Shown here one piece after another: positions 3,980 to 11,546 of a stretch of 11,546 nucleotides of DNA. The stretch's first letter is position 1. The number at the start of each line of letters is the position of its first letter. The translations under genes and the position numbers were made by a program. Origin of the DNA: a virus (Duplodnaviria; Heunggongvirae; Uroviricota; Caudoviricetes); IMG/VR virus record IMGVR_UViG_2703718868_000005, one strand, 5' to 3'. The notes beneath the pieces are model-generated. The model searched no databases. It worked only from the letters and a program-made list of their open reading frames with translations, and had not been told where the DNA came from.

Positions 3980-4037
3980 TTGCCTCCATAGTCCACATGG
4001 TGTAACACTATGTGTTATATAAAATGCAGAGGCAGGT
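3980..4037 (+). promoter_or_regulatory. Putative promoter/operator of the type II TA operon
   Basis: TTGCCT -35-like element (3980-3985), TATAAA -10-like element near 4018-4023 and an imperfect inverted repeat GTAACAC-N3-GTGTTAT (4002-4018) lie just upstream of the toxin SD GAGG. Typical site for antitoxin autoregulation. Confidence 0.35.
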
Positions 4038-4410
4038 ATGCGAATTTTCAAAAACGCCTGGTTTGAACGTTTCGCCCGAAAACATCGGATTTCCGATAAA
4101 TCGCTGCGCAAAATCGTGGAACAGGCCGATAAGGGGGATCATATCCGCAAATTTGGGTAGTGGTGTCATTAAACAAAGATTAGCCCGAAGTGGTGGCGGA
4201 AAATCAGGCGGTTACCGGACAATAATTTTTTACCGCGTTGCAGAAAAAGCCTTTTTCATCTACGCATACGCAAAGAATGAACGAGAGAATATCACTGCTA
4301 TAGAGGAAAATGCTTTTCGAAAAGCCGCTCCCCATGTCCTCAATCTTACTGATGAACAGCTGGCACAATTGATTCAACAAGGCCAGTTCACGGAGGTACC
4401 CAATGAGTAA
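4038..4410 (+). pseudogene. RelE/ParE-superfamily (HigB-2-like) toxin gene, frameshifted at a G5 run (4133-4137)
   Basis: Frame from ATG 4038 gives MRIFKNAWFERFARKHRISDKSLRKIVEQADKG, then a TAG at 4158. The rest of the toxin (IISANLGSGVIKQRLARSGGGKSGGYRTIIFYR...FFIYAYAKNERENIT) continues in the +1 frame to the stop at 4408-4410. Removing one G restores a single ORF of about 123 aa. Confidence 0.7.
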
Positions 4411-4720
4411 AAATTACCGCAGTGATGCACTTGCATCTGTACATGAAATGATGGAGTCACTCCATGATATCGGTGCAATCACAAAACAAACTATGCGCGA
4501 ATTCGATGAAACTTGTCTTCAGCCTGCGCCGGTAATGTCTCCGGAAAGGATCCGTGCACTGCGAGAACGAGAGCATCTGTCTCAACCTGTTTTTGCCAGA
4601 TACCTCAACGTCAGTAAAAACCTGATATCAGACTGGGAACGAGGAGTGAAACGCCCGGGAGGTGCAGCTCTTCGGCTTCTTTCAGTTGTCGAGAAAAACG
4701 GGATCCAGGTAATATCCTGA
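4403..4720 (+). CDS. HTH-type antitoxin (HigA-2-like) partner of the upstream toxin
   Basis: 105 aa. ATG overlaps the toxin stop (ATGAGTAA) and SD GGAGG sits 6 nt upstream. Motifs SQPVFARYLNVS...DWERG...PGGAALRLL match antitoxins paired with HigB-2-type toxins. Confidence 0.85.
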   Translation: MSKNYRSDALASVHEMMESLHDIGAITKQTMREFDETCLQPAPVMSPERIRALREREHLSQPVFARYLNVSKNLISDWERGVKRPGGAALRLLSVVEKNGIQVIS

Positions 4721-4822: not shown

Positions 4823-4978
4823 TTACTCCTCAGGTTCGTAAGCTGTGAAGACAGCGACCTCCGTCTGGCCGGTTCGGATTCGTACCTCGCAGAGGTCTTT
4901 CCTCGTTACCAGTGCCGTCACTATGACGGTTAAACAGATGACAATCAGGGCGATTAACATCGCCTTTTGCTGCTTCAT
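4823..4978 (-). CDS. hokD: Hok-family type I membrane toxin (HokD/RelF-like)
   Basis: 51 aa, MKQQKAMLIALIVICLTVIVTALVTRKDLCEVRIRTGQTEVAVFTAYEPEE, matching HokD/RelF as I recall it. SD AAGGAG upstream. An in-frame upstream ATG at 5035 gives the 70-aa ORF-track frame, at the position of mok. Confidence 0.9.
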   Translation of the reverse strand: MKQQKAMLIALIVICLTVIVTALVTRKDLCEVRIRTGQTEVAVFTAYEPEE

Positions 4979-5026
4979 AGCCTGCTTCTCCTTGCCTTTC
5001 GGCACGTAAGAGGCTAACCTACATGT

Positions 5027-5095
5027 GCAAAGCATGAAATTGGCCTCAGATTAATGTTAAGCGTCCTGCAAGACGCGTAATGTTAACTGGGGCTT
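5027..5095 (+). ncRNA. Possible Sok-like antisense RNA opposite the hok leader (position approximate)
   Basis: Inferred from hok/sok locus architecture. Weak promoter-like TTGCCT-17-TAACCT at 4992-5020 and a hairpin GCGTC-CTGCAA-GACGC at 5061-5076 on the plus strand. Exact ends not determinable from sequence alone. Confidence 0.2.
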
Positions 5096-5249
5096 TTCTC
5101 TGTCTGCCTTACGGCGGCATGCCCGAGGCAGACAGCCTCAAGCACCCGCAGCAATTCTACTTAACTCTTCTTTCCCCGCAAATCATTTTATCCCCGATGG
5201 TAATGTTCTCCCGATATGGGAATTCCCATATCAAGGTTAACTCAATCGG

Positions 5250-5801
5250 TTAAAGCTCCATTAATTTTCCGGCCAGTTCATCTCGTGGCATTACCAACCA
5301 TCCGCGCGATTTAAGCAAAGCCAGGGCTTCTTCAACCGTCACCAGCTGGCCAGGCGCATCACTTCGGATGAAGGCGGTTTTATCGTCACGGATCGCCAGG
5401 TGAAAATCGATATTCATTTTTCCCATAGCCCGCTCTTTCTCGTACTGGTTGAAGTAACTGTCTTCGAGTTTTTCGAATACTTCCCACGCCTGATCGGTTT
5501 CGAGCATTTTTGCATGACGGGCTGCTCCGCGTTCTGTCCAGAGGATGAGAGTGCGGGTTTTGGGAGAAATTTTCACCTCATTTTGCGACTCGTTTAAAAC
5601 TAGTCGCAAATTTTTGAGCTCATCACCAACAGCTTTAAAGAAGTGTTTTCCCTCAATAAATCGAGATTTATTTTCATGGTGATTCTGCTGTATACGGATT
5701 GCTTCTGTTCCGTAAAGGCGGGCGAGTAACTCAGTTGTGATTACAGGAATCTGGTTATAAGTGACAGGGGAAAGGTTTTTGACAGTAACTTGAGTCGTCA
5801 T
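5250..5801 (-). CDS. ORF6N-domain (KilA-N/antirepressor-like) phage regulatory protein
   Basis: 183 aa. N-terminal motif IPVITTELLARLYGTEAIRIQQNHHENKSRFIEGKHFF and later LILWTERGAARHAKML resemble ORF6N antirepressor domains. SD GAGGG about 8 nt upstream of the ATG. Confidence 0.75.
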   Translation of the reverse strand: MTTQVTVKNLSPVTYNQIPVITTELLARLYGTEAIRIQQNHHENKSRFIEGKHFFKAVGDELKNLRLVLNESQNEVKISPKTRTLILWTERGAARHAKMLETDQAWEVFEKLEDSYFNQYEKERAMGKMNIDFHLAIRDDKTAFIRSDAPGQLVTVEEALALLKSRGWLVMPRDELAGKLMEL

Positions 5802-5962
5802 GATAACGCCCTCTGGTTGATGAATTTAACTATCACCACCTTCAGGTCTCAATCATCAGGTGGCGAGACGTACAGGGTTGAGACTACCGGATCAACCAAC
5901 CGGCCAGCCTTTCGGCTGCCCCATACGCCTCACCATAATTCAGATGTGCGTGCGCATACGAC

Positions 5963-5987
5963 AATAAAAAACACGCTCGCGGCGTGT
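5963..5987 (-). terminator. Rho-independent terminator ending the replication-side operon
   Basis: Minus strand reads ACACGC-CGCGA-GCGTGT followed by TTTTTATT. Confidence 0.6.
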
Positions 5988-6072
5988 GTCTGTCGCGGTT
6001 GAATATCCGGGGTCTCAATCCCGACGGTCAACTCGACCGTGCGGTGAATATAGCCCCGGATTAGTAATTACG

Positions 6073-7935: not shown

Positions 7936-8943
7936 CTACCCCCTGAAACCCGGCGGAATTTCGGTATCCGGTTCAGAAATATGATTCACGCAACGCTGCG
8001 CGGGACCACGCCACAGTCGAATAACCAGTTCATCCCATTTCTCACGGAGTTTTTCCGGGCTCTTGATGTTTTTTATCCAGAACGGATCCCGTTGTGCCCG
8101 GCTGAACATTTCGCAAATTTGTCTGTGACTTCTTCCATCCAGCATCCGCATTGTGCGCACGTCATTGGCCCACGCCGTCCAGTTGGGCTCTTTCGGTCGC
8201 GTGATCTCACCATCGTCACTGGCAGCCTGTTCGTACAGGTTTACAACCCGCCCCCAGATCCACTGCGCACATGTCAAATCCTCCCGGGTTCCCCACTGGC
8301 GTTTTTTCACGCTGAACACAACAGCATCAGGATGGCGGGTTAAAAACGCCTGTTCAGCCGTCAACTCGTCCGGTTGCGAAGCGTCCGGACAAGAGAGTTT
8401 TTTATTCTCTGTTGTATTCTCTGTTGTATTCTCTGTAGGATCATCGGGCCATTTTGACCTGATGACATTGGGCCGTTTTGAACCAATGGAACGTTTCATT
8501 TTGACCTCTTCCATCGTGTCATTTTGACCTGATGGAGTGGCGCATTTTGACCCGATGGATTCGTTCACTTTGCCATCATCTAAAAGCGCGCTATCGTAGT
8601 TAATTGTGTAAAAATTAGTCATATCACGCTTCGATTTATTGAGCTTTTCGCTACGCAAAAGCCCCAGCGCTTTCAGACTTGCAAACGCACGCTTTAACGT
8701 TGACTCTGACCAGAACGGAAACTGTTCCAGCCATTGTTCCGTTGTGTTGTAAATCCAGCGAACGCCATCACATTCCATGCCGGAACTGGTATCCCTCAAC
8801 CAGTAATGCAGTTGCTGCAACACAATGGCTTCGTTTAAACCAATCTTCATCGCCAGCTGTGTGTTTATAACCAGCGGGCGTTCAGCAAAAAGAAGGCTCA
8901 TAATTCCATCCGGCTTTTTGTTGGTACTGGTGACGATAGGCAC
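7936..8943 (-). CDS. Phage replication initiator (O-like), with origin iterons inside the coding sequence
   Basis: 335-aa frame; start is GTG at 8943 or ATG at 8901. N-terminal domain resembles phage replisome-organiser proteins. Iteron array and AT-rich stretch lie within the gene. Followed by the DnaC-like gene. Confidence 0.85.
   Translation of the reverse strand: MPIVTSTNKKPDGIMSLLFAERPLVINTQLAMKIGLNEAIVLQQLHYWLRDTSSGMECDGVRWIYNTTEQWLEQFPFWSESTLKRAFASLKALGLLRSEKLNKSKRDMTNFYTINYDSALLDDGKVNESIGSKCATPSGQNDTMEEVKMKRSIGSKRPNVIRSKWPDDPTENTTENTTENKKLSCPDASQPDELTAEQAFLTRHPDAVVFSVKKRQWGTREDLTCAQWIWGRVVNLYEQAASDDGEITRPKEPNWTAWANDVRTMRMLDGRSHRQICEMFSRAQRDPFWIKNIKSPEKLREKWDELVIRLWRGPAQRCVNHISEPDTEIPPGFRG
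8403..8436. repeat. Tandem 12-bp repeat TATTCTCTGTTG, about 2.8 copies, in-frame within the initiator gene (encodes TENTTENTTEN)
   Basis: Direct repeats at 8403-8414 and 8415-8426, with a partial third copy at 8427-8436. Confidence 0.8.
8450..8580. repeat. Iteron array (candidate prophage ori): five to six copies of CATTTTGACCYGATGG-like repeats
   Basis: Copies near 8450, 8474 (degenerate), 8497, 8520, 8543 and 8567 (degenerate), spaced about 23 bp, followed by an AT-richer stretch at 8581-8640. Arrangement resembles ori-lambda inside O. Confidence 0.6.
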
Positions 8944-9403
8944 GCTTGAAAGCGATTGCTTTTTCTATAAGCTCGTCTGTCTCACGTTCCACAACAGCTG
9001 GATCTGCAAAAAGCAGCCTGGACTCCACCACATCGCCATATTCTTTGTTTAACCCGGCAATCATGTACGTAATGCTTTTTCCGTCAGTAATTTCGCGGTA
9101 CAACCTGAAATCACTAATCCGGATAGCCTCCATAATTGCCGGAATCAGCGCCGTGAATTTTTCACGCTTATCCCTGGTGTCGATAGCCTTCCAGCGTTCG
9201 AATATCTTCACCCGGTTAACGCCAAGCGCACGCTGATCAACCCCGCCATCATCAAGCGTGACACGCTGAACATCGATGTTCGGGCGTTCCTGTAGAGCCC
9301 AGAAGGCTTCAGTAATTAATATCGTCGCCTGCTCCTGCGTCATTCCTGGTCGGCTTATCCAGGCATCCAGGGCATCGCGTGCCTGCTCAAGGGTGATTTT
9401 CAT
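8882..9403 (-). CDS. YdaT-like protein (cII-position regulator of Rac-type immunity regions)
   Basis: 173 aa. ATG at 9401-9403 overlaps the end of the Cro-like gene. Family assignment rests on position and loose motif resemblance (ALIPAIMEAI). Confidence 0.65.
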   Translation of the reverse strand: MKITLEQARDALDAWISRPGMTQEQATILITEAFWALQERPNIDVQRVTLDDGGVDQRALGVNRVKIFERWKAIDTRDKREKFTALIPAIMEAIRISDFRLYREITDGKSITYMIAGLNKEYGDVVESRLLFADPAVVERETDELIEKAIAFKRAYRHQYQQKAGWNYEPSFC

Positions 9404-9614
9404 TGTTCAACCGCCCCGCCCGCTTCGTCTTACGATATTCGTCATAAACTTTGGGGTCATACTGAAGCTCCCCGCCGGATGCCTCTTGCAGGCGCATCGC
9501 GCGACCTTCAGGGACCAGTTTCCCCCATTGAGAAACAGCAGATGGATCAACACCAGCAGCTTTCGCTACTTTGGCTTTCGTCCCATAAAAATTAATTACG
9601 TCTGATTTAAACAT
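9387..9614 (-). CDS. Cro/YdaS-like HTH transcriptional regulator
   Basis: 75 codons from ATG 9612-9614 with SD GGAGGGG upstream. HTH FYGTKAKVAKAAGVDPSAVSQWGK. Divergent from the repressor gene. ORF-track frame starts at TTG 9641. Confidence 0.75.
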   Translation of the reverse strand: MFKSDVINFYGTKAKVAKAAGVDPSAVSQWGKLVPEGRAMRLQEASGGELQYDPKVYDEYRKTKRAGRLNNENHP

Positions 9615-9691: not shown

Positions 9692-10099
9692 ATGAACGAG
9701 AAAACTTTAGGTCAACGAATTAGAGAAAGACGCAAACAGGTTGGTTTAAGTCAAAACGATTTAAGCAAAGCTGCTGGTGTATCTGGCTCATCAATTTCAC
9801 TATGGGAAAGCGACCATACAGCCCCGCGCGGGCAAAATTTGCATCGCCTGGCTGAGGTATTGCAATGTTCACCAACTTGGATACTGTTTGGTGACGAGGA
9901 TAAAACACCAGATCCACCAGTTGCACTCAACAGCGCCTTAGACTTATCGGAAGATGAGTCGGAGATGTTGCGATTGTATCGCGCACTTCCAAAATCAGAG
10001 CAGCAAGCACAGATCAGCGAACTCCGTGCCCGCGTTGAGAATTTTAATCGCCTATTCACCGAGCTACTAGAAGCTCGCAAACGTAACAAACATCAATAA
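9692..10099 (+). CDS. dicA: DicA-like prophage repressor (XRE-family HTH)
   Basis: 135 aa. HTH QNDLSKAAGVSGSSISLWE. Segments LQCSPTWILFGDEDK and RARVENFNRLFTELLEARKRN resemble E. coli DicA as I recall it. Confidence 0.85.
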   Translation: MNEKTLGQRIRERRKQVGLSQNDLSKAAGVSGSSISLWESDHTAPRGQNLHRLAEVLQCSPTWILFGDEDKTPDPPVALNSALDLSEDESEMLRLYRALPKSEQQAQISELRARVENFNRLFTELLEARKRNKHQ

Positions 10100-10116
10100 C
10101 CCCCTTCACAAAATTT

Positions 10117-10150
10117 AAAGCCTTACATTTCAATGTATTGGCTTTGTTTT
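10117..10150 (+). terminator. Hairpin with T-rich tail downstream of the repressor gene
   Basis: AAAGCC (10117-10122) pairs with GGCTTT (10140-10145), with an inner stem ACATT/AATGT, followed by GTTTTGC. Confidence 0.35.
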
Positions 10151-10154
10151 GCAT

Positions 10155-10180
10155 TAAATATTGAGCTTTCTCATCAAAAA
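10155..10180 (+). promoter_or_regulatory. Operator-like motif TTGAG-CTTT-CTCA upstream of the ydfA-like gene
   Basis: Nearly the same inverted-repeat motif as in the 9615-9691 intergenic region, located at 10161-10173. Confidence 0.35.
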
Positions 10181-10288
10181 CACTTGGCCAGGCGCCATGA
10201 GAAAACCAAATTACAATCCATCAAGACACCGCACGGTGTTCTCAGCAAACAGTTCCGCTACCCGGCGTTAAGGGCAAATGAGGTCAAC

Positions 10289-10441
10289 ATGGATACACTC
10301 AATCTTGGCAACAACGAATCTCTGGTATGCGGTGTGTTCCCTAACCAGGACGGCACGTTTACCGCGATGACGTATACCAGAAGCAAAACGTTTAAAACTG
10401 AAGCTGGCGCGCATCGCTGGTTAGCCAGAAACACTGACTGA
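10289..10441 (+). CDS. ydfA: YdfA-like small protein (first gene of a dicB-operon-like unit)
   Basis: 50 codons from ATG 10289 with SD GAGG 5 nt upstream: MDTLNLGNNESLVCGVFPNQDGTFTAMTYTRSKTFKTEAGAHRWLARNTD. The longer ORF-track frame from 10133 runs through the terminator hairpin. Confidence 0.6.
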   Translation: MDTLNLGNNESLVCGVFPNQDGTFTAMTYTRSKTFKTEAGAHRWLARNTD

Positions 10442-10452
10442 TGAGGTTGACG

Positions 10453-10821
10453 ATGGAATTTAAAGATTTACCAGTACCATTCCAGGATATGGCAGCGAAT
10501 ATAGTTCGTTCTCAACTGGCGACTCTTGACCTGAGTACCGTAGAAAAAGAAACCATCGACAATATATCCCATAATGTGCGTAATGCCTTTATCAAGCTGT
10601 ACGAAGAGAAGCTGAGTTCTGAAAACAAAGATTATTCACCTAAATTCACCCCACACCCAGGTGGAGTGAGTGAGATTTATCATGAAACAATGGTTAAAGC
10701 ACTACGTATGCAAATAGCCGAACTTGAACATAAATTAAATTTAGTTAGTAAGTGCCAAAATCAGCACAAGGCAAAAGGGTTGCACTTTCATCATAAGGGC
10801 AAACAAAAATGTGAGCATTAA
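10453..10821 (+). CDS. Hypothetical protein in the ydfB/ydfC position
   Basis: ATG at 10453 with SD GAGG 6 nt upstream. The low-complexity basic C-terminal tail overlaps a convergent gene. Confidence 0.55.
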   Translation: MEFKDLPVPFQDMAANIVRSQLATLDLSTVEKETIDNISHNVRNAFIKLYEEKLSSENKDYSPKFTPHPGGVSEIYHETMVKALRMQIAELEHKLNLVSKCQNQHKAKGLHFHHKGKQKCEH

Positions 10822-11047
10822 CACCAACTGAATTAGCAACAGAAAAGGTTTGTTCAAGTATTTGATTCGAATTGAGCGTTGACTGAATAACGTATGCCCC
10901 TGGCAACAATTTATATTCAACGTCACCTTCATTAATCATCCTGGAGTATTTAAAATTTGGCATCAGAGTCTCGAACTTTTTCTCCTGTTCCATTGTTGCT
11001 TCAAATAACTGCACATGAACATAATATCGATTTGATTTAGAGTGCAT
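10745..11047 (-). CDS. Hypothetical protein encoded in an AT-rich island, function unknown
   Basis: 100 codons from ATG 11045-11047 with strong SD GGAGGA 5 nt upstream. AT-rich relative to its flanks. 3' end overlaps the ydfB/C-like gene by about 77 bp. Confidence 0.5.
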   Translation of the reverse strand: MHSKSNRYYVHVQLFEATMEQEKKFETLMPNFKYSRMINEGDVEYKLLPGAYVIQSTLNSNQILEQTFSVANSVGVNAHIFVCPYDESATLLPCADFGTY

Positions 11048-11389
11048 TTTATCCTCCATAGAGGTTCTGGGTTAAAAATGGAGACCAACACGCTGTCACG
11101 TGTGGTCGTGCGCCGGACACGGATAAGAATCCGGCACTGACAGTTTACTGAAAGAACATATCCCTGAAAAGTCAGGGCATAACACGAAAGCGCACGGCGA
11201 AGTTAGTCTCTCTGTATATGTCGTCGTTAAGTTTAATTCGATCGTGCGCTTCCGGTTGTGGCAATCCGCGAAATGGCGCGGCGGTAAGTATGGCTGGGGC
11301 TTCCTCCATTGCTCCAGAAAATGCACCGGGTTGTCAGGTTGACCATACGCCTGAGTGACAACACCGCCACAACAACCTCTGTTATCACT

Positions 11390-11428
11390 TTTCTGGTGAT
11401 TCGGCGGAAATGGATATCCGCCATTTTT
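11390..11428 (+). ncRNA. dicF: DicF-like small RNA (short variant)
   Basis: TTTCTGGTGA at the 5' end, then a GGCGGA-AATGGATA-TCCGCC hairpin (11403-11422) and a T5 tail. This matches the start and terminator of E. coli DicF as I recall it, but with a shorter central segment. Confidence 0.5.
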
Positions 11429-11546
11429 AAAGTGTATTTTGTGATGCGGTGAATGCGGCTAAGCGCACGCGGAACAGTTAAAACAAGCGGTCTTTTACTG
11501 GCGTAACAGACATCAACTAACAATCCGGCGTTAATTGTTAACTGGT

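Follow-up and report, generated by a model that had tools for sequence, protein, structure and literature searches.

GhoS (YjdK) of Escherichia coli is a type V antitoxin, an endoribonuclease that cuts the ghoT mRNA. The immunity genes of pore-forming colicins are transcribed opposite to the colicin gene. A third system to be considered here is carried by the e14 prophage of E. coli K-12, where ymfI (b1143) opposes the early-left operon (ymfK repressor, ymfJ, ymfH, xisE and intE) and converges on ymfJ (b1144), with an overlap of 63 bp between the two genes. Here, we describe a relative of ymfI on a stretch of 11,546 nucleotides of viral DNA (IMG/VR record IMGVR_UViG_2703718868_000005), the whole of which is hereafter called the window. 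The host element is a lambdoid prophage of the Qin/DicB type, integrated beside ompW, of which the immunity and early region is concerned. The gene lies on the minus strand at 10745..11047 and forms, with the 3' part of the gene on which it converges, a conserved module housed in an exchangeable slot of the prophage. Taken as a whole (gene call, assignment to the YmfI family and convergent module in a slot, including a guess at an RNA-directed mechanism), this account is in our opinion likely to be correct.

The list of open reading frames (ORFs) gives a minus-strand ORF at 10745..11059 (104 aa). Its fifth codon is an ATG (11047-11045) that gives a protein of 100 aa (MHSKSNRYYVHVQLFEAT...), with the stop codon at 10745-10747. 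Upstream of this ATG, at a spacing of 4 nt, lies a Shine-Dalgarno (SD) sequence GGAGGA (11052..11057, minus strand). Another in-frame ATG (11059-11057) overlaps the SD sequence and is probably not the start. The 11047 start is also the one used by the Prokaryotic Genome Annotation Pipeline (PGAP) in O157:H7 E32511 (WP_000555741.1), and the SD sequence and start position are common to the other reverse genes found in the same slot. An earlier reading of the window from its letters alone (hereafter, the original prediction) had proposed a 100-aa reverse ORF preceded by a strong SD sequence, and this is borne out by the ORF list, by the GGAGGA sequence and by the PGAP start in E32511. It had also noticed a base composition unlike that of the flanks: the ymfI-like ORF and the segment 10634-11060 each have a G+C content of 36.3%, compared with 45.7% for the left flank (9692-10441), 49.0% for the right flank (11061-11546) and 48.2% for the window. 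In simulations of the AT-rich segment with a first-order Markov model, an ATG-initiated ORF of at least 100 aa arose in 86 out of 5000 runs (1.7%). The length of the ORF by itself is therefore modestly significant, and it is homology that decides. With the homology described below, the reverse ORF is a genuine protein-coding gene.

Judging from profile and pairwise matches, this gene belongs, as a divergent member, to a named but uncharacterised family, YmfI, after b1143 of e14. The protein matches NCBIfam NF051477 'YmfI family phage protein' (E 8.1e-32, 109.6 bits; residues 6-93 on positions 2-89 of an 89-position profile) and phrog_8894 (E 6e-34; residues 6-96 on positions 2-93 of 94). BLASTP aligns it with e14 YmfI over 91 aa at 56% identity, with 76% positives (E 2e-37), and ten invariant columns are shared in an alignment of 25 YmfI sequences, where H11, K24, S56 and C83 count among the invariant or nearly invariant positions. 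The original prediction had recognised no family and had named BLASTP and hidden Markov model searches as a check; it is on this point that it has to be revised, since both led to significant matches, those to the YmfI-family profiles being full-length. The score of 109.6 bits is below the NCBI equivalog cut-off of 140 bits, so that PGAP either names the product of this divergent subgroup 'hypothetical protein' or omits the gene, as it does in STEC1587, a strain identical to the window. This amounts to an annotation gap, PGAP missing the ymfI-like gene in most of the genomes that carry it.

The YmfI family is small (41 clusters in a set of 5.8 billion proteins and 11 representatives in one of 1.8 billion). 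Its members, of ~90-113 aa, are found only in prophages of Enterobacterales (E. coli, Salmonella, Klebsiella, Enterobacter, Raoultella, Scandinavium and Edwardsiella). A first word-indexed protein search returned only four near-identical matches, and the family was reached by a full HMMER scan and a profile search. Pfam assigns no family to the reverse protein (no match at E <= 0.1) or to its convergent partner. A tblastn search with the reverse protein in 50,697 GenBank phage records gave no match at E <= 1, though PHROGs includes the family.

The ymfI-like gene converges on a plus-strand gene (10453-10821; 122 aa, PGAP hypothetical protein WP_001365839.1), hereafter called the partner, which on sequence comparison is a chimera between a Qin-type N-terminus and a YmfJ-like C-terminus. 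Its N-terminal ~58 aa (10453 to ~10633, plus strand) constitute the constant MEFKDLP... domain of Qin-type prophages: matches to phrog_6937/1363, common in these prophages, are confined to residues 1-72, and the blastn homology of the gene to other prophages ends at query base 193. The C-terminal domain (residues 65-95; 10645-10737, plus strand) resembles the C-terminus of YmfJ (47% identity over 34 aa, E 4e-8). The neighbour had initially been taken for a ydfB/C-like gene. This identity is ruled out, the best BLASTP match to K-12 YdfB/YdfC having an E value of 3.2 over 17 aa; the true ydfC precedes the partner gene in E423 and EDL933.

Fifty loci encoding YmfI homologues were gathered from IMG/VR, assemblies and genomes (a scan of species-representative genomes gave just three loci), and 49 of them were informative. 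At 48 of these 49 loci, ymfI is overlapped over 14-77 bp by a convergent partner whose final ~40 residues contain the YmfJ C-terminal motif TPxPxxGxxVxR(V/I)(Y/F)H(D/E)TMVKALR; this count takes in five loci with minor variants of the motif that a regular expression missed. In the sole exception (L013), YmfI is also at its most divergent. At least three unrelated types of N-terminal part occur among the partners. Furthermore, the motif is kept in the protein despite many synonymous codon changes and is therefore selected as protein. As delimited by these comparisons, the linked unit is the YmfJ C-terminal domain plus YmfI, a conserved convergent two-part module.

The conserved convergent and overlapping layout, with toxic genes downstream in the operon, could also be viewed as the important feature in itself. 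Convergent transcription or an antisense RNA, rather than the protein, would then damp leaky read-through into dicF and dicB. This appears very unlikely to us, as the protein is conserved: relative to K-12 YmfI, substitutions at synonymous sites have reached saturation, with a dN (nonsynonymous divergence) of 0.39, and the family is, from such comparisons, clearly under purifying selection. Protein conservation, together with a confidently predicted fold (see below), indicates that the protein is under selection. An antisense role could nevertheless coexist with a function of the protein.

The extent of the overlap varies within the module. In the window, the partner ORF (10453-10821) overlaps the reverse ORF by 77 bp (10745-10821). 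In cassette copies of 96.5% identity, including that of O157:H7 E32511, a TAA stands in place of the CAA found at 10756-10758 in the window; the partner is then 101 aa long and the overlap is 14 bp. The 77-bp overlap is thus a polymorphism among cassette copies: the 3' overlap of about 77 bp that had been pointed out does exist in the window but is not fixed. The alignment with O157 E32511 delimits in the window partner a read-through tail of 21 codons (10759..10821, plus strand; QNQHKAKGLHFHHKGKQKCEH), which probably results from a TAA-to-CAA change that created the 77-bp overlap. YmfJ homologues terminate 6-9 aa past the conserved helix.

The distribution of the module indicates that it is carried by an exchangeable AT-rich cassette (10634..11060), made of the YmfJ-like 3' part of the partner gene and the ymfI-like gene. 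Among 5426 complete E. coli genomes, the reverse ORF was found in 65, mostly of Shiga-toxin-producing strains. The 3' third of the partner gene is present in exactly the same 65 genomes and in no others, whereas the first 193 nt of this gene occur in ~1590 genomes and the conserved ydfC-dicF leader of Qin-type prophages (11061..11388, plus strand) in 4420. In the Qin prophage of K-12, ydfC runs directly into the dicF leader and the slot is empty (L009 4042-4095); such an absence from related prophages had been named in advance as a sign of insertion. Compared with K-12 Qin, E423 shows a 650-bp indel that holds the partner gene and the reverse gene. The proposal of a moron or cargo insertion thus stands in that the reverse gene is accessory cargo, patchy among related prophages (65/5426, compared with thousands for the flanks) and deviant in G+C content (36.3% vs 48.2%), but the inserted unit is a two-part cassette and not the gene alone.

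Other prophages carry alternative cassettes at the same place. That of EDL933 associates a different C-terminal half with a 77-aa reverse gene (phrog_10348; L006 1501-2119); cassettes of this type are found in 656 genomes, and both halves occur together in 650. That of AVS0096 associates a third C-terminal half with a 91-aa reverse gene (L007 1501-2074). The leader 11061-11388 aligns with K-12, EDL933 and AVS0096 up to the SD sequence, and the reverse genes of the window, EDL933 and AVS0096 all start at one point, after shared upstream sequence and a GGAGG SD motif. This common start places the right recombination junction at the SD sequence/start codon. The left junction, as seen in the alignments, is located inside the partner gene near codon 60. 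The slot so delimited by sequence comparison has a constant ~58-aa N-terminus and alternative C-terminal halves, each travelling with its own reverse gene. The module recombined into this Qin/DicB-type slot, between ydfA and the dicF leader, and replaced the C-terminal half of the resident plus-strand gene. On recombination, the ymfI-like gene was separated from its native upstream element; the slot provided it with the shared upstream sequence, the SD sequence and a new 5-codon N-terminus. An exchangeable slot, in which a C-terminal half and a reverse gene are swapped together, is therefore defined in the DicB/DicF prophages of Shiga-toxin E. coli.

The accessory part of lambdoid early-left operons is a site of exclusion genes. 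The reverse orientation, the AT-rich composition, the patchy distribution and the presence of alternative small reverse genes in the slot of other prophages would all suit a lysogenic-conversion moron that is expressed against the repressed early operon and acts in superinfection exclusion or anti-phage defence, as the original prediction suggested. However, neither the reverse protein nor the plus-strand partner matched any PADLOC-DB v2 defence model at E <= 0.1, and the reverse protein does not resemble any protein with a known function in exclusion. A sigma-70 scan found no promoter or terminator for the window copy. Moreover, a stand-alone exclusion factor would leave the pairing with a YmfJ-type domain unexplained. 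A role in exclusion or defence is therefore, in our view, unlikely.

The predicted structure may point to RNA. An AlphaFold (AF2) model built from the 25-sequence alignment (predicted local distance difference test, pLDDT, 80.7; predicted template modelling score, pTM, 0.70) shows a beta-alpha-beta-beta-beta-alpha-beta topology followed by a disordered tail. Structure prediction had been among the checks originally envisaged, and the top Foldseek match of this model is GhoS: in the PDB, 2LLZ is the sole match at E <= 0.001 (E 3.4e-4, TM score 0.70). The model has the Cas2-like ferredoxin fold that characterizes GhoS. Foldseek found no match at E <= 0.001 among viral predicted structures, and a profile search of PDB sequences returned nothing meaningful.

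Furthermore, the gene after ymfI in the direction of the operon is often a Kil-type gene or encodes a small membrane protein. KilR-like division inhibitors follow ymfI in three loci (L013, 410-616; L015, 4602-4904; and L036), and pairs of 36-aa single-helix peptides are encoded upstream of ymfI in five others (L032, L051, L055, L058 and L061). In e14, ymfI is followed by YmfH, which has two predicted membrane helices, with an internal 62-aa ORF (L008 5070-5258). In the window, DicF and DicB are found downstream of the ymfI-like gene in the operon direction. YmfH and the small membrane peptides beside ymfI were considered as GhoT/OrtT-like proteins, and this was rejected as none matches the GhoT/OrtT family in Pfam.

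From these data, a mechanism can be sketched. With its predicted GhoS/Cas2-type ferredoxin-like fold, YmfI would most likely bind or cleave RNA. Since it is transcribed against a repressor-controlled early-left operon, it could act independently of this operon. Its activity might be linked either with the C-terminal domain of YmfJ type or with the operon's transcript, which would bear small toxic genes just downstream (DicF/DicB in the window, KilR or membrane peptides elsewhere). YmfI may work like GhoS, as a type V (GhoS-like) antitoxin or within an effector-immunity pair, while standing outside the GhoST family. The coupling of an RNA-binding or RNA-cleaving YmfI to a YmfJ-type domain or to the operon transcript, each step of which we infer, is put forward tentatively and we would sooner expect it to fail than to hold. 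The wider idea, that YmfI and the YmfJ-type domain form an unrecognised two-component system of prophages in which a GhoS-like, RNA-binding or RNA-cleaving YmfI, made in the lysogen against the repressed early-left operon, neutralises the domain or the transcript of toxic genes, is improbable. If true, YmfI would represent a second type V-like family of antitoxins, structurally related to GhoS and unrelated to it in sequence, and the slot would be a polymorphic one swapping a variable C-terminal domain together with its cognate reverse gene. For ymfI and ymfJ of K-12, two y-ome genes without known function, testable hypotheses of function are now available, with three leads: the GhoS/Cas2-like predicted fold, the near-constant pairing with the YmfJ C-terminal domain and the position just upstream of Kil-type toxic genes.

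Several results weigh against this proposal, either against the mechanism or against the activity of the window copy. Ferredoxin-like folds are common and have many functions, and the likeness to GhoS is one of fold alone, taken from a predicted model. The reverse protein does not match the Pfam GhoS family PF11080 (6e-41 for K-12 GhoS), and alignment of the YmfI profile with GhoS or with a GhoS alignment by hhalign gave probabilities of 0.3% and 0.6%, the GhoS profile being shallow (none of the retrieved homologues fell under 64% identity to the query, and the majority exceeded 80%). No GhoT/OrtT protein (PF10753, which K-12 GhoT matches) was found among the small neighbours of ymfI homologues, and no GhoT/OrtT-type ORF at positions 10400-11546 of the window. 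The linkage between ymfI and the YmfJ C-terminal domain could reflect adjacency and coding overlap and not function. In the literature that was searched, YmfI proteins do not figure in any experiment: an unrelated Bacillus subtilis enzyme is the subject of most 'ymfI' papers, and the E. coli gene is mentioned only in gene lists. A link between YmfI and GhoS, or a description of the YmfJ-C/YmfI module, was not found in this literature either, such an absence being no proof of novelty.

Concerning the window copy itself, the conserved upstream element of e14-type ymfI genes is missing. Upstream of the gene lies the dicF leader, read as its reverse complement, with two strong hairpins (fold z-score -4.6). 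The sole promoter-like match of the sigma-70 consensus scan on the minus strand lies over the start codon, where it could not drive expression of the ORF, and no terminator-like site was found by the scan after the reverse ORF. Moreover, in the majority of genomes PGAP gives no annotation for the ORF, and the copy of strain 2014C-3097 is frameshifted by a 1-bp deletion at codon 6 (L004 ~2790-2800). With dN/dS ratios (nonsynonymous over synonymous divergence) of 0.42 and 0.70 among close copies, all this could be explained if the window copy were a decaying and unexpressed remnant, severed from the promoter and 5' region that were originally its own and drifting under relaxed constraint. Window-type copies would be under weaker constraint, or under a constraint that these comparisons resolve poorly. 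However, the ORF is intact in three of the four haplotypes examined, 2014C-3097 being the exception; the 51 genomes that are at least 99% identical to the window should share its frame. Six IMG/VR contigs likewise carry it uninterrupted, and even the most divergent copy, with a nucleotide identity of 90%, has kept an open frame. The O157 copy differs by conservative substitutions (V/I, S/A, V/A and G/S) and by an in-frame indel. In addition, a strong SD sequence and a new start were acquired exactly where the other cargo genes of the slot start. That the copy is a mere remnant has, on balance, a low probability.

The run AAATCAAATCGA (window 11027-11033, codons 4-7 of the reverse gene) is a hot spot for indels: the O157 and E423 copies have a 3-nt insertion here (an extra Ile), and it is also the site of the 1-nt deletion of 2014C-3097.

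The upstream element of e14-type ymfI genes (~70 nt) is found in K-12 e14 (L008 5425-5497) and in L024-L063, L011 and L013, and is shared by distant ymfI genes of Edwardsiella and metagenomic origin. Hexamers resembling those of a promoter (TTTTCA, 18 nt, TGgTATGCT) occur in it, along with two inverted repeats: ACCAC-N9-GTGGT and, as the second, GCTGG-N13-CCAGC. In Edwardsiella both arms of this second repeat are changed, giving GCTAG...CTAGC, and in L011 and L013 it pairs with the SD sequence. The element could be an operator or a hairpin of the 5' untranslated region. In K-12, ymfI is outside the YmfT iModulon, which groups ymfJ, ymfH, xisE and intE (PMC12132413), and in the late SOS response, the log2 fold change of ymfI is 2.0, compared with 4.8 for ymfJ (PMC11002266). 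These data, although indirect, fit a regulation of e14 ymfI that is separate from that of ymfJ.

The surroundings of the module are those of an early-left operon. Positions 10400-11546 of the window match the E. coli STEC1587 chromosome at 100% identity. Upstream are found YdaT-like (8882-9403) and Cro/DicC-like (9387-9614) genes on the minus strand, followed on the plus strand by a DicA/cI-like repressor gene (9692-10099) and ydfA (DUF1391; 10289-10441; product 84% identical to K-12 YdfA). The operon then continues with the partner gene, the dicF leader and dicB, the latter immediately beyond the end of the window; PGAP leaves 785 bp unannotated between the partner gene and dicB. This order confirms that the ymfI-like gene is reversed inside a plus-strand operon, as first proposed.

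A DicF-like small RNA had also been proposed. By alignment, positions 11389..11428 (plus strand) hold a DicF derivative, but it is truncated and is not called by Rfam: the model RF00039 matched nothing in the window, whether the gathering threshold or E <= 10 was applied, whereas canonical DicF is found at the homologous site in K-12 Qin (76.7 bits) and O157 E32511 (75 bits). The derivative keeps the 5' 10 nt (UUUCUGGUGA) and the GGCGG...CCGCC-U5 terminator hairpin (terminator-like site at 11403-11422) and has lost the 17-nt inner hairpin. A CACAACA motif lies just upstream of it. AgvB was considered at 11359-11428 and rejected, as its score (15 bits, for a threshold of 56 bits) is at chance level.

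Elsewhere in the window, several other elements were observed. A RelE/ParE-family toxin gene overlapping a helix-turn-helix antitoxin-like gene (4012-4720, plus strand; PGAP annotation of the identical STEC1587 record) adjoins hokD (4823-4978), beside which Rfam detects sok (4973-5147, minus strand; 117 bits); two toxin-antitoxin loci would therefore lie side by side in this prophage. Rfam also detects a C4 antisense RNA (5856-5940, minus strand; 69 bits) and isrK (5966-6040, minus strand; 51 bits), upstream of a gene with an ORF6N domain (5250-5801). The proximity of C4 and isrK to this gene suggests a c4-ant immunity module of the P1/P7 type inside a lambdoid prophage. In the identical STEC1587 record, PGAP marks two genes as frameshifted, one for a RusA-family resolvase and a hypothetical one near it (1839-2200 and 391-926), and the prophage may therefore be partly defective.

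The closest described relative of the window gene is ymfI of e14. Both are reversed in an early-left operon, between the repressor and xis/int, and both converge, with a 3' overlap, on a gene that ends in the YmfJ motif; their products share a predicted beta-alpha-beta-beta-beta-alpha-beta core. The window protein differs from e14 YmfI in a new 5-residue N-terminus (MHSKS) and in the absence of the 18-residue C-terminal tail GNDFVHxDLTPKPIKLDS, and its gene differs in the upstream element discussed above. Furthermore, it resides in a Qin/DicB-type prophage, whereas ymfI of K-12 is in an e14-type one, and the N-terminal domain of its partner differs from that of e14 YmfJ. Cas2 is a more distant comparison: YmfI has no CRISPR context and no sequence similarity to it, and its structural scores with Cas2 are weaker than with GhoS.

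GhoS (PDB 2LLZ, PF11080), whose key residue is R28 (PMC4010927), is not of the same family as YmfI: the two are 12-13% identical and lack homology at the profile level, no GhoT/OrtT membrane toxin is adjacent to ymfI, and ymfI converges with a YmfJ-type partner whereas ghoS and ghoT form a co-directional operon. Both proteins nevertheless have a size of ~100 aa and a ferredoxin-like fold with an extra hairpin (predicted for YmfI), and both are found only in enterobacteria. With the immunity proteins of colicins, YmfI has no relation of sequence or fold, and it is predicted to be soluble and not a membrane protein. The likeness here is in the layout of the locus: a small opposed gene that converges on a gene under SOS/repressor control and co-varies with a variable C-terminal domain.

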